From Acidobacteriota bacterium (lineage in GTDB: Bacteria; Acidobacteriota; UBA6911; RPQK01; CBDAPI01), in assembly GCA_965197285.1 (NCBI GenBank), contig OZ240092.1, positions 3,947,337 through 4,011,336 of the forward strand: DNA of 64,000 nucleotides, written 5' to 3'. Shown piece after piece: positions 26,763 through 52,552 of this stretch. The position numbers and the translations under genes were made by a program. How positions within the stretch are numbered: the stretch's first letter is position 1; every line of letters starts with the position of its first letter. The notes below the pieces were generated by a model. That model had not been told where the DNA came from. It ran no database searches and worked only from the letters and a program-made list of their open reading frames with translations.

Positions 26763-27332
26763 TTGATGAAGATCAAGGCATTGGAAGACAGGCGTCGGGC
26801 GCTCGAAGAGTCCTTTTTCAAGAATCAGAATGCCAGGCTGCTGGCGGCGATGCGGGCTAAGACGGCGAGGGCGGAGAAGAGAGCCGCACTGAGGGAGACT
26901 TCCGGCTTGACGAATCCAGACCTGCTCGACCTGCTTCTCGAGCTTGAAATTGACAGTGAGACCCTGGCCGCTCTCACCCTGATCCCACTGGTCGAAGTGG
27001 CGTGGGCCGACCATGCGATCGCAGACGAAGAGCGGGATGCCATCCTTGATGCCGCCGACTCGGTCGGCATCACCCCCGAGACCGAGACCTATGCCCTGTT
27101 GAGCAACTGGCTCAAGACGGCTCCGCCGGCCAGACTCCTGGAAGCGTGGGAAGCGTATGTCGCAGCACTCACGGAAACACTGACGCCGGATGCCGTCCAG
27201 ACCCTCAAAGAGGACGTGCTCGGGAGGGTCAGGCAAGTCGCCTCGGCGGCCGGTGGCTTTCTGGGACTGGGACGCAAGATCTCCGCGTCAGAGCAAATGG
27301 TCCTCGACCGCCTGGAAAAGGCCTTCGGCTAG
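26763..27332 (+). CDS. hypothetical cytoplasmic protein, TerB-like/DjlA-N-like helical domain (tentative)
   Basis: all-helical, acidic; VEVAWADHAIADEERDAILDAAD resembles TerB-fold proteins; weak. Confidence 0.4.
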   Translation: MMKIKALEDRRRALEESFFKNQNARLLAAMRAKTARAEKRAALRETSGLTNPDLLDLLLELEIDSETLAALTLIPLVEVAWADHAIADEERDAILDAADSVGITPETETYALLSNWLKTAPPARLLEAWEAYVAALTETLTPDAVQTLKEDVLGRVRQVASAAGGFLGLGRKISASEQMVLDRLEKAFG

Positions 27333-27425
27333 CCGAAGGCCACTGACCCGCCCGGCGGTTAGACACCGTGACTATCGAGGAAACCGCAGCAAATTCTTAG
27401 CTTCTTACTTAGCCTGGAGGTCCCC

Positions 27426-30152
27426 ATGAACGACGTGATCGACCGCGATTCTCCACGAGATCCCCAACGGCCTTTAACGCTGGCGGAATACCTGCAGGAG
27501 TTAGACGTTTCCGGTTGGCCCCGTCGCCTCAAGCTGATCTTTGTGGCGGCGGCGGTTCTACTGCTCCTGATGGGTCTGAACTGGGCTCGTACTTTCTACA
27601 CGGATTGGCTTTGGTTCAGCAATCTGGGCTACCAGCAGATCCTTCTGAAGATCGTAACCACTAAAGTCTGGCTCTTTTTGGTGGGCGGACTCGTGTTTGC
27701 AGCCATTGCCGGGACCAACCTTCACTTCGTGTTTCGTTCTACCCGGGGACAGGAGCTGCTGGCGCGAAGCACGATCACCCCACACGTCTATGGAACAGTG
27801 AGACAACTCCTGACCTGGCTTTCTGTAGGGAGTGTAGCGCTGATTAGCTTCTTCGTGGCGGCCACTGCGGCTCGGCAGTGGGATAACATTTTGCGTTTTC
27901 TCTGGGCAGTACCTTTTGGCCAGGTGGATCCCATCTTCCAAAAGGATCTGGGCTTTTTCGTCTTTACACTTCCAGTCCTTCACTTCATCCAACAGTGGTT
28001 GGTGGTCGCCCTGATTCTGGGAACTGTGATGGTGGCGGCCCTCTATTACCTGCTTTCCCGATCGCGTGGGGAAGTCTCGATGTTTTCGGGTGGGGTCCAG
28101 GCCCACCTGGCCGGCCTGGGAACCACCATCTTTTTTCTGGTGGCGGTCGGACACTGGCTGGGCCGCTACGATCTCCTTTACTCCACTTCGGGAGCTGTCA
28201 CAGGTGTCGGCTATACGGAGGCCCACGCGGGACTGCCGCTCCATACTCTGATGGCCATAGTGGCGATTCTAAGTGGCATCCTTCTAAGCGCCGGGAGTTT
28301 TACCTCCAGCCGCAGGCTGGCTCATTGGGCGATCGGTCTGTGGTTTGGGCTGAACATCCTGGTTGGATCCGTCGTGCCGTTCCTGGTCCAGCGGTTGTAT
28401 GTGGAACCAAGTGAGCTTGCGAAGGAGAAACCCTACCTGGAAAACCACATCCAGTTAACCCGCCAGGCTTACGGCTTGGACCGCCTGGAGTCGCAGAGCC
28501 ATCCGGCTGGCCGAGCCGTCCGAGCCGAGGCTGTTGCCCAGAATCAAGGCACCGTTCAGAACGTGCGATTGTGGGACGAGGGCCCTCTTCTTGAGAGTTA
28601 CAACCAGATCCAGTTCTTCCGGCTTTACTACGACTTTTTGTCGGTTACGACTGACCGCTATGTGATCGATGGGCAGCTGCGTCAGGTCATGCTTTCCACG
28701 CGGGAGATCTCCGCTGAGAAACTCCCCCAACAGGCTCAACGGTGGGTGAACCGCCACCTGCAGTTTACCCACGGCTATGGAATTGCCATGAGCCCCGTCA
28801 CCGAGGTCGACTCGGGAGGCCGCCCTGCTTTCTTTGTGAAAGATGTTCCACCCCAGGGCGAGATTCCACTCGAGCGCCCCGAGATCTACTATGGTTTGAA
28901 AAGCCTGGATTCCGTGATTGCCAATACCAGGATGCAGGAGTTCAACTATCCGGGGAGGGATGGCCCCGTCTACACTCGCTATGAGGGAGAAGGAGGAGTC
29001 CTTCTCAGCTCTCTGCTTCGGCGGCTGCTTTATGCCTGGCAGTTCCGGGACCTCAACATTTTGATTTCCGGAGAAATCGGGCCGGACAGTCGGCTCCAAT
29101 ATCGACGAACCGTTGCTGAGCGCTTCAATGCGCTCACCCCCTTTCTTCTGCGCGACGAGAACCCTTACGTTGTGGCTACCGACGGGCGTTTGTCCTGGAT
29201 TCAAGACGCCTATACGGTGACCAACCGGTATCCGTATTCCACGGAATGGCAGCGTCAATTCAATTACATCCGCAATAGTGTCAAAGTGGTCATCGACGCC
29301 TATGAAGGCAGCATGGACTTCTACGTTGCCGATACGTCCGATCCCCTGGTCAAGACCTACCAGCGCATCTTTCCCGGGCTTTTCAAGCCCCTGGAAGAGA
29401 TGCCTGGTCATCTGAAGCCCCACCTCCGCTATCCCCTGGGCCTCTTTACGATCCAGGTCCAAATGCTGCTTCAATATCACATGCAGGATGCCGGTGTGTT
29501 CTATAACAGAGAGGATCAGTGGTCTCTTCCACTGCAGACTTCGTTCGGCCGTACGTCAACCTTGGCACCCTACTACATCGTGGCTCGCCTTCCGGGTGAA
29601 GATCGAGAAGAGTTCCTCCTGATTCAGCCGTTTACTCCGGTCGATCGCCACAACCTGGTTGCCTGGATTGCTGCTCGCAACGATGGTCCCCACTATGGAG
29701 AGCTCGTGCTCTTCCGCTTTCCCCCGGGACGACATGTGGATGGTCCCAACCAGGTCGAGGCCCGGATTGACAATGACGCCATTATTTCCGAGCAGTTCAC
29801 ATTGTGGGGACAGGTTGGATCCGAGGTATCGCGAGGCATACTACTCGTCATCCCGCTGGAGGATTCCATACTGTATGCTGAGCCCGTCTTTCTAAAACCG
29901 GAGGCACTGGAGTTCCCCGAGCTGCGCAGGATCATTCTCGCCGATGCCACCAAGGTGGTCATGCACCCTACACTCGACGGTAGTCTTCAAGCTCTCATAG
30001 GAGCCCGGCCTGCGGTTGTTCCTGCCGGGACGGAAGTGGAAGAGCGGGAGGCAACGTCCCTTGCATCGCAGAAGTTGGAGGCGGTCAAAGCCGGGGTAGA
30101 GGAGGCCCTCGAAAAGCTCCGCGAAGTGCTTAATCGGCTCCAGCAACAATAA
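27426..30152 (+). CDS. UPF0182-family large membrane protein
   Basis: 908 aa; N-terminal about 7 TM helices then a large extracytoplasmic domain; length and architecture match UPF0182. Confidence 0.7.
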   Translation: MNDVIDRDSPRDPQRPLTLAEYLQELDVSGWPRRLKLIFVAAAVLLLLMGLNWARTFYTDWLWFSNLGYQQILLKIVTTKVWLFLVGGLVFAAIAGTNLHFVFRSTRGQELLARSTITPHVYGTVRQLLTWLSVGSVALISFFVAATAARQWDNILRFLWAVPFGQVDPIFQKDLGFFVFTLPVLHFIQQWLVVALILGTVMVAALYYLLSRSRGEVSMFSGGVQAHLAGLGTTIFFLVAVGHWLGRYDLLYSTSGAVTGVGYTEAHAGLPLHTLMAIVAILSGILLSAGSFTSSRRLAHWAIGLWFGLNILVGSVVPFLVQRLYVEPSELAKEKPYLENHIQLTRQAYGLDRLESQSHPAGRAVRAEAVAQNQGTVQNVRLWDEGPLLESYNQIQFFRLYYDFLSVTTDRYVIDGQLRQVMLSTREISAEKLPQQAQRWVNRHLQFTHGYGIAMSPVTEVDSGGRPAFFVKDVPPQGEIPLERPEIYYGLKSLDSVIANTRMQEFNYPGRDGPVYTRYEGEGGVLLSSLLRRLLYAWQFRDLNILISGEIGPDSRLQYRRTVAERFNALTPFLLRDENPYVVATDGRLSWIQDAYTVTNRYPYSTEWQRQFNYIRNSVKVVIDAYEGSMDFYVADTSDPLVKTYQRIFPGLFKPLEEMPGHLKPHLRYPLGLFTIQVQMLLQYHMQDAGVFYNREDQWSLPLQTSFGRTSTLAPYYIVARLPGEDREEFLLIQPFTPVDRHNLVAWIAARNDGPHYGELVLFRFPPGRHVDGPNQVEARIDNDAIISEQFTLWGQVGSEVSRGILLVIPLEDSILYAEPVFLKPEALEFPELRRIILADATKVVMHPTLDGSLQALIGARPAVVPAGTEVEEREATSLASQKLEAVKAGVEEALEKLREVLNRLQQQ

Positions 30153-30183
30153 CAATCCCCCAGGTTTCCACCGCGAAAATTCT

Positions 30184-31530
30184 GTGAACGAAAAGAAGAG
30201 TCATCTCACACTCTACATTTGCATCGCGATTGCCGCGGCAATTGCGCTAGCTTTGCTCGCCCCGCTCTTGGCCACAAAACTCCATGTCGGTGGTGAAGTT
30301 TTCCTGCGGTGTCTCAAAATGATGGTGGTTCCGCTGGTGATGACCAGCGTGATGAGCGGCATCTTGGGCCTCGGAGACGTTCGCGAATTGGGGAAGCCCG
30401 GTGGGGCTGCCATTTTGTACTACGTCTCAACAACTATCCTCGCTGTGGTTGTGGGCCTGGCGGTCGTTAATGCAATCAGACCGGGTGAAGGGACGGTAGA
30501 TAAGGCTACGCTTGAGAAGTTTCAGGGAGGAAACAGTTCAAATTCTCCCAAGTCGCGAATGCTGAAAAAGCTGTCCGACGTGACGGGCATGACCGAGGAT
30601 GAAGTCGGCAGTGTTTTCAAGGAACTTCCCAGCGGTGAACCGGAAACGCCAGGTGTAGCGAAGATCCTGGAGAATCTTGTCTTGATGCTTGTGACGGACA
30701 ATCTCTTCGTCAGTGCGTCCGAAACCAATCTGCTCCCGCTGATCGTGTTCTCCATCATCTTTGCGGGAATGCTCACGACACTGGGCCAAAAGGTGGGGTT
30801 GATCAACGATCTGGTCACACAAGCCAATACCGCTCTCATGAACTTCATCATGCTCCTGATGAAGTTGGCACCCATTGGTATTTTCTGTTTGGTGACGGCA
30901 CGCTTCGGTGAAGCGAGGGCCGAAGGCAGGTTTTTGCAAGAGTTGTCGCAAGTCGGTTGGTATTTCGCAACGGTGCTTGCTGGCTTAGCGTTCCATGTGC
31001 TCGTGACACTCCCAGCCATCTACTGGATGTTCACCAAGAAGAATCCTTACAAGTTCATGTATCAAATGTCCCAGGCTCTTTTGACGGCGTTCTCGACGGC
31101 GAGTTCGTCCGCCACGTTGCCGGTGACGATGGAGACGGCACAGAAAGCTGGGGTGTCGAAAAAATCAACGAATTTTGTCTTGCCATTGGGTGCGACGATT
31201 AACATGGACGGCACGGCGTTGTATGAAGCTGCCGCCGCGATTTTCATTGCCCAGGCAATCGGTTTTCATCTCACATTCACGCAACAGGTAATCATCGCTG
31301 TTACAGCGACCCTGGCCGCTATTGGTGCAGCGGGAATTCCAGAAGCCGGTTTAGTTACGATGTTGATCGTCCTGAACGCGGTCGGACTGCCGATAGCGTA
31401 TGTGGGGTTGATCCTTTCCGTAGACTGGCTGCTTGACAGGTTCCGAACCGCAGCAAATGTCCTTGGTGATTCCGTCGGTGCGGCGGTTGTAGAGATGGCA
31501 ATCCCTGTCGAAGGAACGAAGTCAAGTTGA
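30184..31530 (+). CDS. dicarboxylate/amino acid:cation symporter (DAACS; GltP/DctA-like)
   Basis: PLGATINMDGTALYEAAAAIFIAQA and other DAACS signatures. Confidence 0.85.
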   Translation: MNEKKSHLTLYICIAIAAAIALALLAPLLATKLHVGGEVFLRCLKMMVVPLVMTSVMSGILGLGDVRELGKPGGAAILYYVSTTILAVVVGLAVVNAIRPGEGTVDKATLEKFQGGNSSNSPKSRMLKKLSDVTGMTEDEVGSVFKELPSGEPETPGVAKILENLVLMLVTDNLFVSASETNLLPLIVFSIIFAGMLTTLGQKVGLINDLVTQANTALMNFIMLLMKLAPIGIFCLVTARFGEARAEGRFLQELSQVGWYFATVLAGLAFHVLVTLPAIYWMFTKKNPYKFMYQMSQALLTAFSTASSSATLPVTMETAQKAGVSKKSTNFVLPLGATINMDGTALYEAAAAIFIAQAIGFHLTFTQQVIIAVTATLAAIGAAGIPEAGLVTMLIVLNAVGLPIAYVGLILSVDWLLDRFRTAANVLGDSVGAAVVEMAIPVEGTKSS

Positions 31531-31577
31531 AGAAGGCGGTGGGAATCAAGAACTGGAGATTGACCGCGTTGCCTAGC

Positions 31578-31593
31578 TTGCATTGCAATGCAA
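31578..31593. promoter_or_regulatory. perfect 16-bp palindrome TTGCATTGCAATGCAA overlapping the antitoxin start (candidate TA operator)
   Basis: exact dyad immediately at the vapB-like start codon; RHH antitoxins autoregulate through such operators. Confidence 0.45.
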
Positions 31594-31596
31594 TGC

Positions 31597-31848
31597 ATGG
31601 AAAGGCAGCTAACGGTTCGCGTGCCTAAAGAACTGGATGGAGCAATCGGCCTCGCCGCACGCACGCTTCAGCGCACTCGTTCAGAGATTGTGAAGGATGG
31701 CGCTGCGCCAGTTTCTGACTGTTTCCCTCAAGGGACGGCCAGCCGAAAGGGTTGCGGATTTGATCGGTGCCCTGGATTCGAGAGTCCCGGATCTGGCCGC
31801 CAGGCATCGTGAGTACATCCTGGAATCATTGAGAAATGGCCGGTGAGT
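31597..31848 (+). pseudogene. ribbon-helix-helix (CopG/VapB-like) antitoxin with a single-base frameshift near 31697-31700
   Basis: MERQLTVRVPKELDGAIGLAARTLQRTRSEIVKD then, in the +1 frame, ALRQFLTVSLKGRPAERVADLIGALDSRVPDLAARHREYILESLRNGR*, whose stop overlaps the vapC ATG (ATGGCCGGTGA). Confidence 0.55.
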
Positions 31849-32261
31849 TGCTGCTCGACACCGGAGCACTCGTCTCCCTTCTCGACCGAAGCCAGCCGGC
31901 TCATCCTGACGTATCCAGGTTCTTTGCAGCCTGGGATGGCAAGGCGGTCAGCACTGAAGCGGTTCTCACCGAAGCAACTCACCTTCTGGGGAGAGTCGCA
32001 GGAGGTATCGAAGCCTGCCTGAGTTTCTTTCTCCAGGGGGGAGCCGTCCTCGTGCCCCCATCCATTGTTTCCCTCAGACGAGCCCGCGAGCTGCTGATCC
32101 AGTACGCGGACCTTCCGATGGGCTATGCCGACGCAACGCTCGTGGTTCTCGCCGAAGAACTTGGAATCAGCCGGATTTTGACGACCGATAAGCGAGATTT
32201 CGGGATCTACCGCCGGGCAGGCCGGACACGGTGGCGACCAGTCCAATGCCGACGCCGATGA
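31836..32261 (+). CDS. vapC: PIN-domain toxin, VapC family
   Basis: LLDTGALVSLLD (Asp8), TEAVLTEATHLL, LTTDKRDFGIYR acidic residues in PIN order; start overlaps antitoxin stop. Confidence 0.75.
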   Translation: MAGELLLDTGALVSLLDRSQPAHPDVSRFFAAWDGKAVSTEAVLTEATHLLGRVAGGIEACLSFFLQGGAVLVPPSIVSLRRARELLIQYADLPMGYADATLVVLAEELGISRILTTDKRDFGIYRRAGRTRWRPVQCRRR

Positions 32262-32299
32262 AGATCAGCGACCAGGGCAGCCCGCTACAGGCGGCGGGC

Positions 32300-33096
32300 T
32301 CCCATGAGCGCGTCGTAGGGGCCGTTTTTGAGGGCTCAGGGGATCTTCGTCTCGCTCCTACGTTGGGGATGGAACGGCAACAGCTGGCGTTTCACAGCAA
32401 GGAGCCGGTGCTGCAAGCCGAGTTCGAACGTGCCTTCTTCATGTTCACCGACGATACCGCACAGGAGTTGGAGGGCCAGCTCAAGTTTGGTGAGGGCAAC
32501 TCAGCTCAACTGGAGAAGCACTACCGCGAGTGGATCAAGAAGTTGCAGCGTTACGGCCGGGACTGGACGCCTCGTTTGCTCAAGGGACTACTGGCGGAGG
32601 ATCCTACTCAGCATGCGTTTTTCGTAGCCGAAATTTGTACTCAAGGGAAAGTTTCGACCAGCTCAACTTTCACCCTCACCTGCACAGCCTGGCGGCGGAG
32701 GGAGGTTGGGGCCGAGACAACGGCACTTTTCAGTCCGTCAGTTTGCTGAACTCGGACATCCTCAGCGCTATTTTCCGCCAACAAGTGCTGGAAATGATGG
32801 TGCAAAAGCGCCGCCTCAGCCCCGCCTTCGCTCACAAGATCTCCCACTGGCGCCACAGCGGAGGCTTTCAAGTCTACTGCTCCCAGACCGTACAAGCCGA
32901 CGACCGACAGGCCCTCGAGCGGCTGGCTGCCCGCGCTACTGCGCAAGATCTACGAGTCGACCCCTTCACTTGTCCTCGTTGCTCGGGGCCGATGAAAATC
33001 GTGGCGGTCATCGAGCAACCGGAAACCATCCGCCAGATCCGGCTCTCCACCGATTCCATCTATTGGGACGACGTGCCCACCTGGCCGGATTCCTGA
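32300..33096 (+). pseudogene. IS91-family (Y2/HUH) transposase C-terminal remnant, internally frameshifted near 32640
   Basis: FHPHLHSLAAEGGWGRDNG...HWRHSGGFQV...ERLAARAT...CPRCSGPMKIVAVIEQPETIRQI resembles the conserved C-terminal half of IS91/ISCR transposases; N-terminal half absent; two overlapping frames. Confidence 0.5.
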
Positions 33097-33412
33097 GATC
33101 TACGCCCCCAGGAATCGACGGCCCTGCTTGGAGTGCGTCTTGTTTTGCCCTCGTTCCGTTGCCTTGTTGCTGCGCTCGTGTCCCTCCCCCACGCTTCCCT
33201 TGTTACATCCCCGAAACACCCCGCCTTCCGGCCCTCACGGCTCCTTGTAGGCCCATCTTGACCCGCATTTCAGGACTTGCTACCCTCAGCTTGAAAAGCA
33301 AATTACTATCTTCTTGCCTGTGGTGATTCTTATCTGGCTGGACCGGCCACGTTCGGGAGGGAGTTCTGGAGTTACCCGAATTGATGTTTCAGCTGTGGCA
33401 TAGGAGTTAGCT

Positions 33413-34630: not shown

Positions 34631-36014
34631 GAGCTATGGTCGGAAGTTGTGTATGAGAGGCGGCGTATCCTGAATCCGTGACCTTCAATCATGGATTCAC
34701 CCGGAGACCGAGAAGGAGGATACGCCTTGAAGAAAGATACTGTAGTTTCCATCGACGAACCAACCACAACGAAGGATGCCTTGACGGAAGTTCTGCGTGA
34801 AGGAGCACAGAAGCTTCTGGCTGAGGCGGTTCAAGCCGAGCTGGAGGAGCTGCTGGAAGAGTACGAGGGTCAGCGTGATGGCCAGGGCCGCAAACGTCTG
34901 GTTCGCAACGGCTACCTGCCGAAGCGTGAGATCCAGACAGGGATTGGAGGAATCCCGGTTCGGATTCCGCGGGTTCGAGACCGTGGAACTGGTGAGGAGT
35001 CGGAGGAGATCATCCGCTTTCGTTCCAGCCTGGTGCCTCCCTATCTGAGACGTAGCAAGAGCGTGGAGGAACTGCTGCCCCTGCTTTACCTGAAGGGGAT
35101 CTCCACAGGAGACTTCTCGGATGCGTTGAGTGCACTGTTGGGGCCGGATGCACCGGGACTGTCGGCCAAGACGATCAGCCGGCTCAAAGGCAAGTGGGTC
35201 AAGGATTATGAGAAGTGGAGGCTGCGTGATCTCTCCAACAAGCGCTACGTTTACGTTTGGGCCGATGGCGTGTATGCCAACGTTCGCTTTGACGACGGCC
35301 GGCTTTGCCTTCTGGTGCTGATCGGAGCCCGTGCGGACGGCAAAAAGGAGCTGATTGCCGTGGAAGATGGCTACCGGGAAAGTGAGCAATCCTGGTGGGA
35401 GTTGCTGCGGAATCTGCGCTCCAGAGGCCTGCACAGGGGACCAAAACTGGCGATTGGCGACGGAGCGCTCGGATTCTGGAAAGCCCTGGCCAAGATCTAC
35501 GGCAATACGCGACAGCAACGCTGCTGGATGCACAAGACGGGCAATGTGCTCAACTGTCTGCCCAAGGCCGTTCAGCCAAAAGCAAAGACGGCGCTGCATC
35601 AGATCTGGATGGCTGAAACTCGAGAGAATGCCTATAGGGCCTTTGACGAGTTCATTGCCACCTATCAGCTGAAGTTTCCAAAGGCCACGTCCTGCCTGGC
35701 CAAGGACCGGACAGAGTTGCTGGCTTTCTACGATTTTCCAGCCGAGCACTGGCCACATCTGAGAACCACAAATCCGATCGAGTCGACCTTCGCAACCGTG
35801 AGACTGCGAACGGCCAAGACTCGAGGCTGTTTGTCCAGGCAAACCATGCTGACGATGGTCTTCAAACTATGCAGAAGCGCTGAGAAAAGATGGCGCCGGC
35901 TACAAGGTTGCCGGCGCCTCGGAGAGGTCATAGAAAACGTCACATTTGTAAACGGAATCCGTGAAAACGAGGTCGCCGCCTAATGGGTCCGTACCCAACT
36001 TTTGACAATAACTC
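34631..36014 (+). mobile_element. IS256-family insertion sequence (1384 bp) flanked by 9-bp direct repeat CAGGACGAT
   Basis: imperfect about 25-bp terminal IRs (GAGCTATGGTCGGAAGTTGTGTATG / rc GAGTTATTGTCAAAAGTTGGGTACG); TSD at 34622-34630 and 36015-36023. Confidence 0.8.
34691..35983 (+). CDS. IS256-family (mutator-type) transposase
   Basis: DDE transposase with the IS256 C-terminal signature (…YDFPAEHWPHLRTTNPIESTFATVRLRT…). Confidence 0.9.
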   Translation: MDSPGDREGGYALKKDTVVSIDEPTTTKDALTEVLREGAQKLLAEAVQAELEELLEEYEGQRDGQGRKRLVRNGYLPKREIQTGIGGIPVRIPRVRDRGTGEESEEIIRFRSSLVPPYLRRSKSVEELLPLLYLKGISTGDFSDALSALLGPDAPGLSAKTISRLKGKWVKDYEKWRLRDLSNKRYVYVWADGVYANVRFDDGRLCLLVLIGARADGKKELIAVEDGYRESEQSWWELLRNLRSRGLHRGPKLAIGDGALGFWKALAKIYGNTRQQRCWMHKTGNVLNCLPKAVQPKAKTALHQIWMAETRENAYRAFDEFIATYQLKFPKATSCLAKDRTELLAFYDFPAEHWPHLRTTNPIESTFATVRLRTAKTRGCLSRQTMLTMVFKLCRSAEKRWRRLQGCRRLGEVIENVTFVNGIRENEVAA

Positions 36015-36500
36015 CAGGACGATGGGCAGGAGGTCGTTATTGACACGAATGTCTTTCTCTCAGGCGTCTTCTTTGGCGGGCTACCCTGCCGGATCTTGAG
36101 GGCCTGGCGTGACAGCAAGCTCACCCTGGTTTATTCCTTGGAAATTCTGGGTGAGTATAGAAGAACGGGTGTCAGACTGGCACGTCGGTTCGAAGGGCTA
36201 GATCTCGATCCATTTCTCGCGCTGGTGGTAACTGAAGGCAGGCTTTTCGCCTCCCCCGCCCTGGATGAAGACGTGTGTGAGGACCCTGCAGACGACAAGT
36301 TCTTCGCATGCGCGGTCGCGAGCGGCTGCAGGCTGATTGTTAGTGGTGACAAGCATCTGCTCAAGGCAACGGGATACACAGCATTGAAGTGCTCCGGCCT
36401 CGAGCATTCGTGGAGAGTTATCTCTAGCCCGGATTATGCAAGAGATCTAAATTCAAGTGAGATTTGGGCCCAGGAAAAAGGCCGTAGCTCTCTGATATAA
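36015..36500 (+). pseudogene. PIN-family toxin (TIGR00305-like toxin-antitoxin component PIN family). Its 5' end is split off by the IS256 insertion and its 3' end runs into the IS1380 terminal repeat
   Basis: VVIDTNVFLSGVFFGG...DPADDKFFACAVASGCRLIVSGDKHLL matches the family; no start codon after the IS; a candidate original TTG start lies at 34601 on the other side of the IS. Confidence 0.6.
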
Positions 36501-38080
36501 AAGGGTTTACAAAAACAAAGACCCTAAACAGGAGCTACGGCAATGTCAAAAACAGTCTGCCAGAATACCCTGCCATTTCACAGCCACAGAAAGATCACGA
36601 CGCGTTTTGATGGAGGGAGCCTCACTTCCGACGCAGGATGGTTGTTGTTTGGATCCCTGGATCGTCAACATCGATTGTGCGAGGGCTTCAGTTCGTGTAT
36701 TGCGGAAAGTCGAGACCGACGCTACGTTCGTCATGACCTGTTGAAGTTGATCCGACAACGAGTCTTGCAGATCGTGGCCGGCTACGAAGACTGTAACGAC
36801 GCCGATACGCTGCGCTCGGATCCGATGCTCAAGACAGTCTGTGATCAGTTGCCAGAGAGCGATCCCGATTTGGCCACCCAGCCGACTTTCTCCCGCCTGG
36901 AGAACTCCGTCACCAAGAAGGATCTGATGCGTCTGAGCCGGTGGCTGCCAGGCCGTTATGTGCGCTCCCTGAAGAAGAGACGTCCCAGCAAGATCATCCT
37001 GGATCTGGACAGTACCGACGACCACACTCACGGCCAACAGGAGTTCTCCTTCTACCACGGGTATTACCGAAACCACATTCTGCATCCTTTGCTGATCTTC
37101 GATGCCGACACGGGAGACCTGGTCTGTGCCGTGTTGAGACCTGGCAACAAGGGGGCTGCCTCTCACATCGTGCCCATTCTGAAGCGAGTCGTGGAGGCCA
37201 TCCGACAAGCAGTGGGGACGGATGTCGAGATTGAGATTCGGGCCGACAGCGGCTTTGCCACGCCTCGGCTCTACGAGTTCTGTGAATGTGAAGAGAATAA
37301 ACTCCAGTATGTCATTGGGTTAAGTCGAAACCCTCGCCTGCAGCGAGTGGTCGAGCCCCTGCTGGATTCGACTCGGCTGAGGTTCCTTGAGCTGGAGGAA
37401 AAACAGCGTCAGTTTGACGAGTTTCTTTATCGAGCCCACAGCTGGGATCGATCCCGTCGCGTCATTGTCAAAGTGGAGGTCGATCAGCGTGGCATCAATC
37501 GTCGCTTTGTAGTTACCAACCGGGACGATCTCTGCTCCCAATCACTTTATGACCACTACACAAACCGAGGGCAGACCGAGAACTTCATCAAGGCCTTCAA
37601 GAATCATCTGAGCATGGACCGACTCAGCTGTCATCGATTCCTGGCCAATCAGTTTCGACTCCTCCTGCATGCACTGGCTTACCAGATGTCCGTGCGCCTG
37701 CGCGACTATCTTCACGGAACCCCCTGGCACAAGCTCGAAATCGAAACCTTACGTCGTCGGGTCCTCAAGATCGGGGCCCGGATCCGACAAACCACTCGAC
37801 GCATCTGGGTCCATCTTTCCTCAGCCTTCCCCGAACAACCCCTCTTCCACCTCGTCTTGAGTCGCCTGAACTCCAGTTAGCTTTTCCCAGCTCCCCCGAA
37901 AAACCGCTTCCGACACTCATCCAGGCCCAGATCTGTCTGAAATTCACTCCCCAAACCACTCAAACGCCTCGCCAACCCATATTCTTCGCAAATCCGCCTG
38001 TCACACCTGCCCGCTTCCGAGTTGGGCCACTTCTCAAGTCGTTTTTCAACACCGAACTACGGTTCTTGCATAATCCGGGC
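36460..38080 (+). mobile_element. IS1380-family insertion sequence, copy a (about 1.6 kb; ends approximate)
   Basis: transposase 36543-37880; candidate IRs GCCCAGGAAAAAGGCCGTAGCTC / rc GCCCGGATTATGCAAGAACCGTAGTTC. Confidence 0.6.
36543..37880 (+). CDS. IS1380-family DDE transposase
   Basis: FDGGSLTSDAGWLLF, LDLDSTDDHTHGQQE, YHGYY, ADSGF, YTNRGQTENFIKAFKN signatures. Confidence 0.9.
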   Translation: MSKTVCQNTLPFHSHRKITTRFDGGSLTSDAGWLLFGSLDRQHRLCEGFSSCIAESRDRRYVRHDLLKLIRQRVLQIVAGYEDCNDADTLRSDPMLKTVCDQLPESDPDLATQPTFSRLENSVTKKDLMRLSRWLPGRYVRSLKKRRPSKIILDLDSTDDHTHGQQEFSFYHGYYRNHILHPLLIFDADTGDLVCAVLRPGNKGAASHIVPILKRVVEAIRQAVGTDVEIEIRADSGFATPRLYEFCECEENKLQYVIGLSRNPRLQRVVEPLLDSTRLRFLELEEKQRQFDEFLYRAHSWDRSRRVIVKVEVDQRGINRRFVVTNRDDLCSQSLYDHYTNRGQTENFIKAFKNHLSMDRLSCHRFLANQFRLLLHALAYQMSVRLRDYLHGTPWHKLEIETLRRRVLKIGARIRQTTRRIWVHLSSAFPEQPLFHLVLSRLNSS

Positions 38081-38082
38081 TA

Positions 38083-38523
38083 GTGGCTGACCGCACCGAG
38101 TTCTGGTGGAACGAGCGCAAGCCCGACGAGCCGATGCTGTGGGAAAGCAAGATCGAACTCGGCGAGAAGTTTTTTAACGAGATTATCCGCCACCCAGTGC
38201 CGCTGGACATGAATACCCTCAACGCGCTCAAACGCTGCTCCCTGGGTCTGGATCTCTACCTCTGGCTCGCCTACCGCACCTTCGCTCTCCGCGCTCCGCA
38301 ACGGCTCACCTGGAAGCAGTTGTACCGTCAGTTCGGCCCGCATCCGGCCAAGGCGAACGATCCCGCCACCGTCAAGAACTTCCGCCGCAAAATCCTACGG
38401 GAGTTGAAGAAGATCAAGATCGCGTGGCCGGACCTAAACTACACTACGGCTCCGGGGGTCTTGATTCTCTTGCCCTCGACGCCCATCATCCTTCCGGGGC
38501 AGCAGCTTTCACTCCCGGAGTAG
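38083..38523 (+). pseudogene. C-terminal fragment of a plasmid replication initiator (RepA_C domain); N-terminal half missing
   Basis: VPLDMNTLNALKRCSLGLDLYLWLAYRTF...TWKQLYRQFG...NFRRKILRELKKIKIAWPDL matches the RepA_C family; begins (GTG) right at the IS1380 end, preceded by an in-frame TAG. Confidence 0.6.
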
Positions 38524-39757: not shown

Positions 39758-42700
39758 TTGTCGCGGGTTGATGGGAGGCTTGATGATGGACTTTGCTGGA
39801 ACCGAAGGGACTCAGGGACTCGGCGAATGCAGCACTTCTGTGTTGGCCGGCCGGGTTGGGCGACGGTGCGGCCCGGCGCGGCCCATCCGGCTGGCGACTC
39901 GGGTGGCCGAAGCCGGCGCGGGCCGGTTGCGCCGCTTGTTGCCCTTGCCGGGGCGGCAGCGGCGGCCCCCGCCCTCGCCCAGACCCCCTCGCACTGCAAC
40001 CCGTCGGACCGCAACGAACTCTGGTGCGCGACCCTGACGGTGGAGCTAGACCACCGGTTCGCGGATACTTGGGCGGATATTATCGGGTTTGTCGCCCCCG
40101 ATTCCGGCACGAGTTCTCCTCCTTACGGGAGCGTCGCGCCCGGGCGCACCTTCACTTGGCGCGGGAACTCGTTCAGAGTGGACGTTCTCCGTGTCCGGGG
40201 GATGGGGCAGTTGATATTCAGGTTCGGCCCGGACCGTCTCGGGTCCGGCGTTTTCGCGCTGGAGGTCGGGACGGGAGCGAGCAAGCGAAGCTTCCCAATT
40301 CTCCTTAACGGTTCAAGGTTCCAACAATGGTCCGACACGGGCCTGGCCGGGGCCTGGTCGGCGGGCGACAGCGTCCCGGTCAAGCTCGTCCGCATCGCCA
40401 CCGTGCCGGGCAGGCCGGCCTCCCTGCACGCGGTCCCGAACGGGCAGACGCAGATCGACCTCACCTGGGGCGCCCCCGAGGATGGCGGCGCGGATATCAC
40501 GGGCTACAGGATCGAGGTGTCCACCGACGGAGGCCTCACGTTCAGGGAGCTCGTGGCCACCACGTCCAGCCGGAGCACGACCTACAGCCACACCGGTCTC
40601 ACGCCCGGCAGGACCTATCACTACAAGGTCAAGGCGATCAACTCCGTCGGCACGGGCCCCAGATCGTTGATTCCCAGCGCCACCGCCGGCGCCCCCCCGC
40701 ACAACGTCAACGCGACTGCGCAGTGCGACGCGACCGACAGCAACGAACTGTGGTGCGCCACCCCCTGACGGTGGGCAAACATTCTGCCTTCTTTGGGCTT
40801 GGCAACGTTGCCGGCAGAGTACTTGGCAGTGCCCAACCCGCGTCCTTCACCCTGGACTCGCAGGAAATCCATGTCAGGAAACTGATGTACATTGCCGGAT
40901 CGCGGGCCCTCGATTTCGAAATCTCTCACGGTCTGGGCTCCGGCCACTTCTCGCTGGAGATCGGCACGGGTCGGATCAAGAAGTCCTTCCCCATCGTGAA
41001 CCGGGGAACCCGAACGGTGTTCCGCTTTTCCTTGCAAGGCCTCAACTGGCAGCTCGTCGATACGGCCCCCGTCACGCTCAAGCGCGCCGGCCGCCCGGGC
41101 AGGCCGACCTCGCTGCGCGCGACCGCGAACGGGCCGAGCCAGGTCGACCTCACGTGGAACGCCCCGGAGGATGACGGCGCCGGCCGGATTACGGGCTACA
41201 AGATCGAGTGGGAGGAGCAGGAAGTTTATTTTGCGAAAACCCTCGTGGAAGACACGGGCAACGCGAAGACGACCTATGGCCACACCAGCCAAGGCCCCAT
41301 CCCTCTCAAAGGGGGCGAACTTTACTTTTACCGGGTCTCGGCGATCAACTCCGCCGGAACGGGTCCCGCAACCGAATGGGTGGAGATTGTCGCCAACACC
41401 GCGAGCCCGGCGCTCGGGCACTGCAACCCGTCCGACCCGGACGAGTTCTGGTGCGCCACCATGACGGTCGACACGTGGAGTAGTACGAACGCCAATTGGT
41501 TCGGTTTCCAGACTTATGGGTCAGACCACGGCGACCTATCCCCCAGGATGTTTGCCTGGCAGGGGACCAGCTACACGGTCAGTCAGTTGATCTTCGAACA
41601 AGCCAAACAGGACCTAGATTTCATAGAGATACGGTTCCGTATAAATCCCCTAGGGGCGGCGACGTTTTATGAACAGGACTACGTGCTGCATGTCGGAAAC
41701 CAGCGGTTCCCGTTTCAAGCTGCCAGTGGCTTTCCGGGGGCAGGTCAACGCTATCACGAATGGCTGGATACGGACGTCGACTTCCTGGGGATGTTTTCGA
41801 CGGGCGACCAGGTCATCGTGAAGCTGACGCGCACCAATCACCCGCCAACGTCACGTGACAACCGGGTCTACATCGAGGAGAACACGGGCCATAACTTCTC
41901 GCGTCCGGAGTTTCCATTCTCCGATGAAGACCAGGGCGACCGGCTGGAACGCGTCAGGATCGTGACCGTGCCCGCGGCGAGGAAAGGCACCCTGACCCTC
42001 GACGGCTCTGCGGTGAGCGCCGGCGACACGGTGACGCCCAGTCAACTGGAGGCTGGCCTTCTCAGGTACTCGCCGCCCCCATGGCGGTTTGGCCGGAACC
42101 TCGCGAGATTTGCCTTCAGAGTGAGCGACGGCAAGGACGAGAGCGCGGCAGACTACACGCAGGCGATCAGTGTGACCCGCTCCTCCGGTGGCTACCACGT
42201 CGGGGGTGGCGGCAAGCTTTCGCAGAAATTCACCACGGGCCCCAATCCGGCCGGCTACCGGCTGGAGGACGTCACGGTCGGGATCATACAGGGGCCGCCC
42301 GCCGTGCCGGCGTTCTCGATCTACAGGCCGGTCTCCCGCCTCCAGTCGAAACCGGGGACCGAAAAGGTCCTCGACTTGACCGGCAGCGTGGCCACCACGG
42401 GGGACCAGACCTTCACGCCCGCACCGGGCACGCCCGACAGCGCGCGGATCCTCGAACCCGATACCAGCTATCACGTGGTGTTCGAGGCGGCCTCGAACTC
42501 CCCCGCAAGTGTGCGGCTGCAGCAGAGCACGGCCCCCCCGACCTGAGCAGAGTCCCGGAGGGATGGTCCTTGCAGAACTGGCATTACTATTACGACCGCA
42601 CCCCCCCGAATACCAGCGTCCCGTGGGCCTGGGGCATCAGCACCAGCGGCATCGTCCTGATCGGGATCACCGCCACTCCGGGGGGGGGCGCCGCAGATCG

Positions 42701-50819: not shown

Positions 50820-52552
50820 GCATAGATCACCGATTTGGAAATGAAGGTGATTTTGGCAGGCCGGAACGGTTTTCTGAGAGTTTCGCTATCGATCCGGTCC
50901 AGGTCGAGTGATGCGGTGGTGTGGAGGGTCGTGAATGGAGCGTTTTTCGGGCTCGGAAGAGGGTGACGGAACGGATTCAGGCAGAGCTCGGCCTGAGCGA
51001 TGGAACGATTTCGTTTTTGGGGCGTTTGATCGGGACAGACCTCAGCAGCGCAGAGGAATGGCCTGGAGGTTTCGAACGACGGCAGCGAAGACCTCGCTGT
51101 AGGGATAGGCTTCCGACATGGAGATCCAGACGTGGCGGACCGTGAGGCGGACCTGGGCGCCGATCTTGAGGAGCTTCAAGCGAATCGTCTGACACTGAGC
51201 GCGAGCCAGGGGGGTCTGCTTCAGTCCGAGACGACGCAAGGCGTGCATGAGCATGTAGGCGGCGGAGGACAGATACAGCCGGAGTTGATTGGCGCGCATC
51301 GTTGCCGCGCTGGTCCGGTCGGCGAACAGATCCAACTGCTGTTCTTTTATGCGGTTCTCCATGTCGCCCCGCGCACAGTAGAAGTCTTCGTAGAGCGCGC
51401 GGGCCCCCAGGCGTTCCGGCGACAGGGAGGTGACGATGAATCGGGGATTGGCGCCTTTCTCCAGGAACTCGGCCTTGCCGACGACGCGTCGCTCCGAGGT
51501 CCAACTGTGGCGAGTCCGGTAGCGGAAATCCTGGAACACCCGCGCCGGTCGCCCGGTGGCGTTGAACTCGGCTTCGGCCTGAGTCATCGCTTCGGCGATC
51601 TCTGACTTGAGCCGATCATTGTTGGCCAACCCCATCACGTAATCCACGTGATGGTCTTCACACCAGCGGAGCAAGTCATCCCGGCAAAAGCCAGAGTCGG
51701 CCCGGATGACGATCGAGACCTCCGGCCAGCTCTGCCGAATCCGGCCGACGATCCGTTCCAGTTCCTCCGCCGATCCCGCGGCCCCATCGATATTGGAACA
51801 CCGCAACCGGGCGCACAGCAGATGCTCCCCCGAGAAGATGTACAGCGGGAGATAACAGTAGTGGCGGTAGTAACCGTGAAAGAACCGGCCTTCCTGCTGG
51901 CCATGGATCGGGTCGTCGGTCGCATCCAGATCCAGCACGATCTCCTCGGGCGCCGATTCGTGGGACTCCACGAAGGCATCCACCATCCAGCCGTCGATCC
52001 GGTCCGGGTCCATCGCGATCTTCTTGTACCGCTCCTGCTCATCGACCTCGGCGCCGGTCAACTCCAACCGGTTCAGCGTACACCTGCCCGCCAGCGCCTT
52101 CCCCCGATCTGAGGCCTGCCGCCGCCGCTCCCCCAACGGATCGGCCTTATTCACCGCCACCGCCAGCATCGGATCGGTGCGCAACTGATCATGATCGTTC
52201 AGATCCTCGTACCCCAGACAGAGTCCGTAGATGCGCTGCCCCAACAACTCCTCGACCGTGTGTTCGATCAACCGCGGATCCCGGTGATCCCTGAAGCACG
52301 CGGTCAGTCCGGCAACGAGACCCGTCCGCTGCTCGACCTCGCGTAACAGCAGCACCCCTGCATCGGAGGTGATCTTCCCGCCGTCGAACCGCGCCTTCAC
52401 TTTGCGTTGAAATAGTCCGTGAAATTCGAACCTGGCTTGTTTACACTCTGTTCTCATAAGGGCCGCCTCCGTTTGGCTTTGAAGTCTTTCATTCAAAACG
52501 CTTTATACCAAACAGGGCGGCCTTTTGAGGTCCTATCGGTGAGAAATGGCGG
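50820..52552 (-). mobile_element. IS1380-family insertion sequence, copy b (a different member from copy a), nested inside IS3 copy 2
   Basis: IRs GCATAGATCACCGAT / rc CCGCCATTTCTCACCGAT; target CTAGCCC present on both sides (TSD 4-7 bp, exact ends ambiguous). Confidence 0.65.
51042..52496 (-). CDS. IS1380-family DDE transposase
   Basis: FDGGKITSDAGVLLL, LDLDATDDPIHGQQE, FHGYY, ADSGF, YCARGDMENRIKE signatures. Confidence 0.9.
   Translation of the reverse strand: MNERLQSQTEAALMRTECKQARFEFHGLFQRKVKARFDGGKITSDAGVLLLREVEQRTGLVAGLTACFRDHRDPRLIEHTVEELLGQRIYGLCLGYEDLNDHDQLRTDPMLAVAVNKADPLGERRRQASDRGKALAGRCTLNRLELTGAEVDEQERYKKIAMDPDRIDGWMVDAFVESHESAPEEIVLDLDATDDPIHGQQEGRFFHGYYRHYCYLPLYIFSGEHLLCARLRCSNIDGAAGSAEELERIVGRIRQSWPEVSIVIRADSGFCRDDLLRWCEDHHVDYVMGLANNDRLKSEIAEAMTQAEAEFNATGRPARVFQDFRYRTRHSWTSERRVVGKAEFLEKGANPRFIVTSLSPERLGARALYEDFYCARGDMENRIKEQQLDLFADRTSAATMRANQLRLYLSSAAYMLMHALRRLGLKQTPLARAQCQTIRLKLLKIGAQVRLTVRHVWISMSEAYPYSEVFAAVVRNLQAIPLRC

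Follow-up and report, generated by a model that had tools for sequence, protein, structure and literature searches.

A probably dead VapBC-type (RHH antitoxin / PIN toxin) cassette beside an IS-rich stretch

The locus described here is best read as the dead remnant of a type II VapBC cassette (RHH antitoxin / PIN RNase toxin), an ordinary, decaying one that lies beside an IS-rich stretch. Its state can be explained without unusual biology, as a decayed example of the already known VapBC (RHH-PIN) kind, and we consider it likely that both genes are dead, probably together with the promoter, and that the frameshift in the antitoxin gene is real. The window is the whole 64-kb stretch of DNA that was analyzed, and positions are counted from its first nucleotide. 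The first-pass annotation had recognized a VapBC-type pair, an assignment borne out by Pfam and by the homologue alignment (RHH_1 at 30 bits once the reading frame is restored, PIN at 40.3 bits), and had described a one-base frameshift in the antitoxin next to an intact toxin and an intact operator, a combination that should be lethal unless the toxin is inactive. Aligning the homologous vapBC loci, which it had recommended, confirmed the frameshift and revealed that the toxin is truncated; with the toxin 3’ end replaced at 32213 and an additional D96G change, the lethality paradox is removed. The annotation had left a sequencing indel and a decaying module side by side; we favor the decaying module and retain the sequencing indel as the lesser rival.

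Homology to the intact cassette is limited to 31539-32212, where the window is 94% identical at the DNA level to the nearest intact copy, represented by locus L008 (blastn). Twenty-one contigs carry this intact copy, whose antitoxin was called at 86 aa and whose toxin has 137 aa. The features of the module are as follows.

31560-31565, plus strand: -35 hexamer TTGACC of the module promoter (the scanner calls TTGACC-18-TACAAT in L008; the window, L003 and L004-6 all share GGAGATTGAC unchanged)
31584-31589, plus strand: -10 position, now TGCAAT through A→G at 31585, derived in the window lineage (TACAAT or TACATT in relatives; polarized with L004 as outgroup)
31578-31597, no strand: putative operator dyad, a 16-bp palindrome (31578-31593) and a 19-bp odd palindrome (31579-31597), with the motif kept among homologous loci
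31579-31592, no strand: family operator core TGCATTGCAATGCA, from the motif comparison of homologous loci
31597-31695, plus strand: antitoxin codons 1-33, covering the RHH beta-strand, helix 1 and the first half of helix 2 (tblastn HSP of residues 1-33, 100% identity)
31693-31696, plus strand: frameshift site AAGG (AGG or GGG in relatives), with the insertion aligned in the window, L001 and L002
31697-31846, plus strand: antitoxin codons 34-82 and stop in the +1 frame, covering the end of helix 2, the linker and the toxin-binding C-terminal region (tblastn HSP of residues 33-82; 33 full-length homologues)
31836-32212, plus strand: PIN toxin codons 1-126, with D8, E46, D99 and D118 kept and D96G at codon 32121-32123 (Pfam PIN, 40.3 bits; blastn)
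32213-32261, plus strand: foreign 15-codon tail RAGRTRWRPVQCRRR and stop, in place of the native I-H-G-R-x-x-F-E-I-x-P beta5 segment (DNA identity past the breakpoint; AlphaFold)
32213-33330, plus strand: degraded IS91-family (Y2_Tnp, HUH) transposase remnant in several frames (partial Pfam Y2_Tnp and NCBIfam transpos_IS91 matches at 32530-33096; six-frame reading)

The right limit of the IS91 remnant is approximate, and was placed near the end of an ORF at 32706-33326 that gave no match in the family profile search.

The truncated toxin and the split antitoxin

The toxin ORF (31836-32261, 141 aa) matches Pfam PIN (PF01850) at 40.3 bits against a cutoff of 23.6, over profile positions 2-114 of 120. 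Contrary to the earlier proposal, it is nevertheless not intact: blastn homology stops at 32212/32213 in every relative that reaches this end (L003, L008, L004-6, L012 and L035; seven of the twelve loci listed). The breakpoint lies twelve codons before the family stop, and the last 15 codons of the window ORF are foreign. Past this point the relatives read …YR-I-H-G-R-x-x-F-E-I-x-P-stop and the window reads …YR-RAGRTRWRPVQCRRR-stop; over the 36 nt that follow, the window matches L008 at 10 positions, whereas L008 and L004 are identical at 29. A likeness of the tail to the family consensus (GRT.W..V versus GRT.F.IV) was considered and rejected, since 10 of 36 nt is at chance level. Both F133 and P137, conserved in 99% and 98% of 119 homologues, respectively, are replaced in the window, and the final conserved beta-strand (…F-E-I-V-P) is lost, the sequence in its place being unrelated and coming from the degraded IS91-like element. 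AlphaFold models made with the same alignment gave pLDDT values below 50 for window residues 129-141, compared with ~94 for the C-terminal strand of the intact homologue P0002 (95.5 overall). The window toxin therefore lacks a complete PIN fold that includes the C-terminal beta-strand, and loss of this strand, beta5, is predicted to inactivate it. Neither the lost 3’ end of the toxin nor a paralogous antitoxin or toxin was found by tblastn elsewhere in the 64-kb window.

The four acidic residues are kept (D8, E46, D99 and D118, mapped on D4, E42, D97 and D116 of VapC26). The window lineage also carries D96G, at a position where 117 of 119 homologues (98%) have Asp. We rejected this change as a decisive catalytic knockout, because the active VapC26 has Gly at the corresponding position and D96G therefore need not be disabling. 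The NCBIfam profile TIGR00028 (Mtu_PIN_fam, cutoff 73.6) scored only 22 bits with the window toxin and 20.6 bits with the intact P0002, which points to a VapC lineage different from Mtu_PIN_fam.

The antitoxin is split over two frames. Frame A, which begins MQCMERQLTVRVP and continues …SEIVKDGAAP…, runs from ATG 31588 or ATG 31597 to a stop at 31810-31812 and gives, from ATG 31597, a 71-aa product; frame B runs from ATG 31697 to TGA 31844-31846 and reads MALRQFL…ESLRNGR. As sequenced, the RHH_1 profile scores 18.1 bits (cutoff 20.5) with the match cut at profile position 31, and it rises to 30 bits after removal of one base. A tblastn search with the restored antitoxin likewise returned two HSPs in two frames, in agreement with the one-base frameshift seen in the first pass. 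No single antitoxin ORF in the sequence as it stands combines the complete RHH with the toxin-binding C-terminus, which is out of frame. The search with the joined antitoxin gave 36 relatives, the full-length ones being 81-128 aa as called and mostly 81-86 aa. The restored antitoxin aligns with 33 full-length homologues over its entire length. All 33 share the reading …SEIVRMALRQFL…, with SEIV(R/G)MALRQFL…RPAERV..LIGSLESGVPDLAERHREYILESL..; the frame-A tail (…EIVKDGAAP…), an ending that would have spoken against a frameshift, is absent from every one of them.

DNA alignments show GTG-AAGG-ATG in the window, GTG-AGG-ATG in L008 and L004-6, and GTG-GGG-ATG in L003. Since the homologues read SEIV(R/G)MALRQFL, the extra base lies within AAGG at 31693-31696, and would most simply be a duplicated A (GTG-A[A]GG-ATG). 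Thus the single extra base of the first-pass annotation stands, but its placement near 31697-31700 shifts to the left, and the restored junction, given there as …KD followed by ALRQ…, becomes …SEIVKMALRQFL…, i.e. …SEIVKMALRQ…. The restored protein has 82 aa instead of 83, counted from the homologue-supported ATG 31597 (MERQ…): an in-frame TAA two codons before MERQ in L004 identifies this ATG as the start, so that ATG 31588 is probably not used and the 16-bp palindrome, contrary to what had been thought, probably does not overlap the antitoxin start. Located in helix 2 of the RHH, the insertion cuts the DNA-binding half off from the toxin-binding half. Two half-length antitoxin calls, P0151 (50 aa) and P0156 (51 aa), were examined as independent frameshifts and discarded; L004-6 are in frame and the gene caller chose an internal ATG, and the L007 copy is truncated by the end of its contig. 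In the restored frame, the antitoxin stop (TGA 31844-31846) overlaps the toxin start (ATG 31836) in the 11-nt ATGGCCGGTGA at 31836-31846, as described before; this overlap exists in the restored frame only, the actual frame stopping at 31812, 24 nt upstream.

Operator and promoter

The exact 16-bp dyad, TTGCATTGCAATGCAA at 31578-31593, is present as reported, and is nested with a 19-bp odd palindrome, TGCATTGCA-A-TGCAATGCA, at 31579-31597. By chance, 64 kb should contain around 1.2 perfect 16-bp palindromes; two are present in the window, so the dyad is unremarkable by itself and owes its significance only to its position and its conservation among homologues. Homologous loci were gathered with an 11-sequence antitoxin alignment, and the 60-90 nt upstream of the antitoxin start were surveyed in 38 loci from Acidobacteriota, Methylomirabilota/Rokubacteria, Gammaproteobacteria and Planctomycetota MAGs, together with flanks of at most 3 kb on each side. 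With up to two mismatches allowed, 32 of the 38 upstream regions carry the motif TGCATTNNAATGCA within 90 nt of the antitoxin, and the motif is absent from the rest of the fetched flanks. Its commonest form, TGCATTACAATGCA, contains TACAAT, and the window dyad is a variant of this form; judged by its sequence, the window module carries a palindromic putative operator in its own promoter. An RNA element at this site was rejected, Rfam yielding a sole, spurious sub-threshold mir-33 match on the palindrome.

For L008, the promoter scanner predicts TTGACC-18-TACAAT, with its end 7 nt ahead of the ATG. The same 7-nt spacing is found without a Shine-Dalgarno sequence in nine surveyed loci and in L004, and other loci have a 20-25 nt leader with GGAGG. 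A -10 box only 7 nt before the ATG, together with the missing Shine-Dalgarno sequence, suggests a leaderless mRNA, and the transcript of these intact relatives is probably leaderless. The scanner calls no promoter in the window, where the -10 site reads TGCAAT. With L004 as the outgroup, two substitutions are derived in the window, G→T at 31578 and A→G at 31585, and both raise the symmetry of the dyad; the perfect palindrome is therefore a derived state. Sigma-70 promoters require the adenine at the second position of the -10 box. The change at 31585 perfects the palindrome and at the same time removes this key adenine from the conserved TACAAT, and the operator can thus no longer be called intact. 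A few family members (L038, L018 and L032) also have a TGCAAT-like -10 box, and for this reason we only infer that the window promoter has lost its activity.

Taken together with the relatives, these elements suggest how an intact member of the family would work. Transcription would start from the sigma-70-type promoter TTGACC-18-TACAAT, whose end lies 7 nt before the antitoxin ATG. The RHH antitoxin would bind the dyad TGCATT-NN-AATGCA over the -10 box, repressing its own operon, and its C-terminal half (…RPAERV..LIGSLESGVPDLAERHREYILESL) would neutralize the PIN toxin, the translation of which would be coupled to that of the antitoxin via the ATG…TGA overlap.

Probable decay of the module, alternative readings and surroundings

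In the window lineage, each of these parts has been struck. The toxin has lost its last 12 codons at 32212/32213, at the junction with a now-degraded IS91-like element, and with them the terminal strand of the PIN sheet, and has gained D96G; the -10 box has lost its essential second-position adenine by A→G at 31585; and the +1 insertion in RHH helix 2 has parted the DNA-binding half from the toxin-binding half. We propose that the toxin was disabled first and that the antitoxin and the promoter, free of selection, decayed afterwards, leaving a locus that is presumably functionless now.

The family survey fits this order. Among 40 species-representative genomes, both genes are intact at 24 loci, and at eight an intact antitoxin either stands next to a toxin stub or lacks a toxin altogether. 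Antitoxin disruptions are confined to two survey loci, neither of which retains a whole toxin: L027 combines a stop at antitoxin codon 4 with a toxin frameshift, and L044, which has no toxin, bears a +1 insertion less than two codons away from the window site, within one codon of it. A broken antitoxin with an intact toxin was seen at none of the loci in the 40 genomes. This pattern is the one expected if loss begins with the toxin and reaches the antitoxin afterwards. Coding changes polarized with L004 amount to four non-synonymous and six synonymous substitutions and two indels in the window lineage, and to one non-synonymous and eight synonymous substitutions in the intact sister lineage; as a sign of relaxed selection this difference is a trend, the changes being too few for significance.

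The identical insertion is present in three assemblies, namely the window (part of a 5.75-Mb contig), L001 (a 319-kb contig at 11x from a different sample, ERZ25072076, with 1 SNP relative to the window in 6.4 kb) and L002 (2x, sample ERZ25072670, with private indels elsewhere), and all three also have the -10 change, D96G and the toxin junction in common. The same insertion in three independent assemblies argues that the frameshift is real, and we hold this to be very probable. The principal rival is that the frameshift arose in assembly or basecalling and that an intact antitoxin, with GTGAGGATGG at 31690-31699, sits beside a toxin that is truncated even so. The contigs look like long-read metagenome assemblies, and error-like single-base indels do occur in sister contigs (an extra C in L006, GGTC[C]GTG, and a missing G in L002, GGG→GG), which makes a reproducible basecalling error at GAAGGATGG conceivable. 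Moreover, the form of decay seen most often in the family is an intact antitoxin beside a disabled toxin (eight of about 36 assessable loci), and L044, with its insertion so close to the window site, is a MAG from a long-read project. On the other hand, the AAGG site is no homopolymer run, the extra A is common to three assemblies that differ in coverage and each have different private errors, and the sister module is in frame on its 21 contigs, several of which are named in the same style and some of which come from the same samples. The three other independent lesions at the locus, too, make a pseudogene unsurprising, and we judge an artefact unlikely.

Two further readings would keep part of the module at work. 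The toxin could still be active, with the cell surviving through scant expression (a crippled -10 box and uncoupled translation) or through a paralogous VapB elsewhere in the 5.75-Mb genome. The intact D8, E46, D99 and D118 and a PIN score of 40 bits, above threshold, are compatible with this, the -10 mutation would lower expression, and cross-talk of antitoxins between VapBC pairs has been reported (PMC7354431). Yet the beta5 strand with the near-invariant F133 and P137 is gone, the tail has a pLDDT below 50, the window holds no paralogous antitoxin or toxin, and the family survey found no locus combining a broken antitoxin with an intact toxin, so that an active toxin appears very unlikely. 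The split antitoxin, in turn, could be functional, either by programmed +1 ribosomal frameshifting or by translation of a separate 49-aa C-terminal peptide from ATG 31697 that neutralizes the toxin. This ATG is in frame with the entire toxin-binding region and preceded by AAGGA, and one gene caller annotated the 49-aa ORF (P0126). All relatives are in frame, though, which means that no recoding signal is conserved; GUG-AAG-GAU is not among the known +1 slippery sites; the AAGGA touches the ATG, a zero spacing too close for a Shine-Dalgarno sequence; and the half-length ORFs P0151 and P0156 in other genomes are gene-calling or contig-end artefacts. We therefore rejected programmed frameshifting and an internal start, either of which would be extremely improbable. 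Our preferred reading remains a real frameshift in an antitoxin whose toxin is already disabled.

To the right of the module follow the IS91 remnant, a methyltransferase, an IS256 transposase, an N-terminally truncated PIN_3 ORF, a DDE_Tnp_1_4 transposase, a RepA_C fragment and an rve integrase. The IS91 remnant covers Y2_Tnp profile positions 12-111 of 183 and scores 33 bits with transpos_IS91 against a cutoff of 125; it contains no intact HUH/Y2 transposase, its reading frame being broken across three frames. To the left lies an SDF transporter gene (30184-31530) with 95-96% DNA identity to three contigs, which share nothing but this gene with the window and in which its context differs. The named relatives of this SDF gene are from Pirellulaceae (80-82% amino-acid identity), and the closest intact copies of the cassette come from MAGs that bear the label Acidobacteriota. 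Pfam matches of ten other genes in the window were not diagnostic for any phylum. The position of the module is indeed at the left edge of a stretch dense in IS elements. The earlier suggestion that it is the first element of an accessory island and may mark the island boundary is not borne out: the low GC begins at ~29-30 kb, before the module, and the SDF gene is shared only as an isolated gene. Via this neighbor we found no island-free syntenic relative, the SDF gene alone being shared.

A more elaborate history would involve IS91-type capture of the cassette, a template-switch origin of the palindrome and, as a minor variant, an insertion hotspot at codons 33/34. Instead of decaying in place, the truncated vapB-vapC’ may have been captured from an Acidobacteriota-like donor by the adjacent IS91-family rolling-circle element through read-through (one-ended) transposition, and the captured cassette may have been carried into an unrelated host, whose neighboring SDF gene has relatives in Pirellulaceae. 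The perfect dyad may have been born of quasi-palindrome template-switch correction, as both window-derived substitutions add to its symmetry, one of them incidentally silencing the promoter. Codons 33/34 of the VapB family may be an insertion hotspot, at which the window and L044 were struck within one codon of each other. We consider this history unlikely.

Meaning of the locus and relation to known systems

The locus itself carries little weight, being a textbook case of TA decay whose paradox was gone once the homologues had been aligned. It does hold a lesson for annotation: even a PIN ORF that retains the four acidic residues may be a truncated pseudogene, and its C-terminus should be compared with the family. 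Of possible use, too, is the widespread VapBC subfamily of soil bacteria to which the locus belongs, in which nearly the same operator, TGCATTACAATGCA, is fused to the -10 box across several phyla, even where protein identity has dropped to roughly 50%. The operator is found in leaderless and in Shine-Dalgarno-led forms and could serve as a model for the co-conservation of operator and antitoxin, and the family survey backs the expected order of decay, the toxin first and the antitoxin later.

The closest relatives of the module form an uncharacterized RHH-PIN subfamily from Acidobacteriota, Methylomirabilota and other soil MAGs (L008, CBDFLV010000006.1, with P0121/P0277), and have the same promoter, operator core and 11-nt overlap as the window. 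Unlike the window module, the L008-type copies are intact, with an antitoxin of 86 aa as called (83 aa when counted from MERQ), a toxin of 137-138 aa and a TACAAT -10 box, and they lie in a different, conserved chromosomal context (DUF3604 … LMF1).

FitAB of Neisseria gonorrhoeae has an RHH antitoxin that anchors the PIN toxins on an inverted-repeat operator within its own promoter. The sequence and spacing of the FitAB operator differ from those of the window module, and no detectable sequence match between the two was obtained.

Among solved toxins, the closest relative is that of M. tuberculosis VapBC26 (Rv0581/Rv0582; PDB 5X3T; E = 4e-10), which aligns to the very C-terminus and whose RHH antitoxin is encoded upstream of the PIN toxin, as in the window. 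Its antitoxin binds a palindrome in its own promoter, and the active site of VapC26 consists of D4, E42, D97 and D116, with residues 129-134 forming beta5 of a four-stranded parallel sheet (PMC5737657). The C-terminal RFTVIP of VapC26 aligns with FEIVP of the window family, and it is this strand that the window copy is without. The two systems differ in that the toxins are only remotely similar, at about 30% or less as estimated by eye from the alignment, the operator sequence is another one, and the window antitoxin is frameshifted.

Degraded TA loci and orphan antitoxins are common (PMC7354431), and at least 10 of the 40 family loci are in such a state. In the Caulobacter parE pseudogene, the Shigella yacB frameshift and the Klebsiella orphan antitoxins, as in the window, the toxin is disabled and its partner decays or persists. 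Many of the described loci, however, keep a functional antitoxin, whereas in the window both genes and the promoter have been struck.

Relatives of the SDF gene and the TA cassette

The SDF (dicarboxylate/amino acid:cation symporter) gene upstream of the TA module (window 30149-31533) shares 95-96% DNA identity with its counterparts on contigs L048, L049 and L050. The homology between the window and these contigs is confined to the gene, ending at both gene ends, and the neighbours of the gene differ on every contig compared, the window included. In these alignments, the SDF gene shows the behaviour of a recombination patch or of a cassette that is mobile. Its named relatives belong to the Pirellulaceae (Planctomycetota), and the adjoining TA cassette (window 31539-32212) is 94% identical at the DNA level to the copies on L008 and L053, which come from MAGs labelled Acidobacteriota. 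Together, the Acidobacteriota-labelled cassette matches and the Pirellulaceae relatives of the SDF gene point to a putative recent transfer between distant lineages.

The IS-rich stretch

The DNA to the right of the TA module contains the following features.

34691-35983: IS256 transposase
36096-36500, plus strand: PIN_3-domain ORF, a second degraded toxin
36543-37880: DDE_Tnp_1_4 transposase
38083-38523, plus strand: plasmid RepA protein fragment (RepA_C profile positions 100-179 of 181)
51042-52496, minus strand: another transposase assigned to Pfam DDE_Tnp_1_4

The PIN_3 ORF, flanked on one side by the IS256 transposase and on the other by the first DDE_Tnp_1_4 transposase, is N-terminally truncated, because its profile match covers only positions 26-115 of 115. 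The DDE_Tnp_1_4 insertion sequence (window 36424-38084) is 95.7% identical to copies on L048, where two are full-length and a third is cut by the locus end. The RepA fragment suggests that the IS-rich stretch includes remnants of an integrated plasmid.

Decayed family members and assembly indels

Besides the window's copy, two decayed members of this TA family were noted.

L044, 2001-2250: decayed TA copy, Rokubacteria MAG
L027, 138-900: decayed TA copy, Methylomirabilia MAG, 108x coverage

The Rokubacteria copy, which is without a toxin, carries a +1 insertion (GTT[G]GCG) at most one codon from the frameshift site of the window's antitoxin. In the Methylomirabilia copy, antitoxin codon 4 is changed from CAG to TAG and the C-terminus of the toxin is frameshifted. 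Among the relatives of the window's cassette, L006 has an extra C at 3451-3453 (GGTC[C]GTG) compared with L004 and L005, and L002 lacks one base near 3503 (GGG to GG). Each of these single-base indels occurs in just one low-coverage long-read contig; therefore, assemblies from the same source do contain indel errors, a point that matters for the trust placed in any single frameshift.

Palindromes and promoter layouts

Two further palindromes lie in the window.

27320-27341: perfect palindrome GGCCTTCGGCTAGCCGAAGGCC, 22 bp
42480-42498: perfect odd palindrome GTTCGAGGCGGCCTCGAAC, 19 bp, within a high-GC stretch

The 22-bp palindrome overlaps the final 13 bases of an ORF (26763-27332) and is located 85 nt upstream of a UPF0182 gene.

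Comparison of the 60 nt upstream of each antitoxin at the TA family loci L008-L047 revealed two promoter layouts that share their operator and −10 motif: a probably leaderless one, in which 7 nt separate TACAAT from the ATG, and one in which a leader of ~20-25 nt carries the Shine-Dalgarno sequence GGAGG. Several of these loci contain two or three overlapping TGCA-pentamer sites upstream of the antitoxin.
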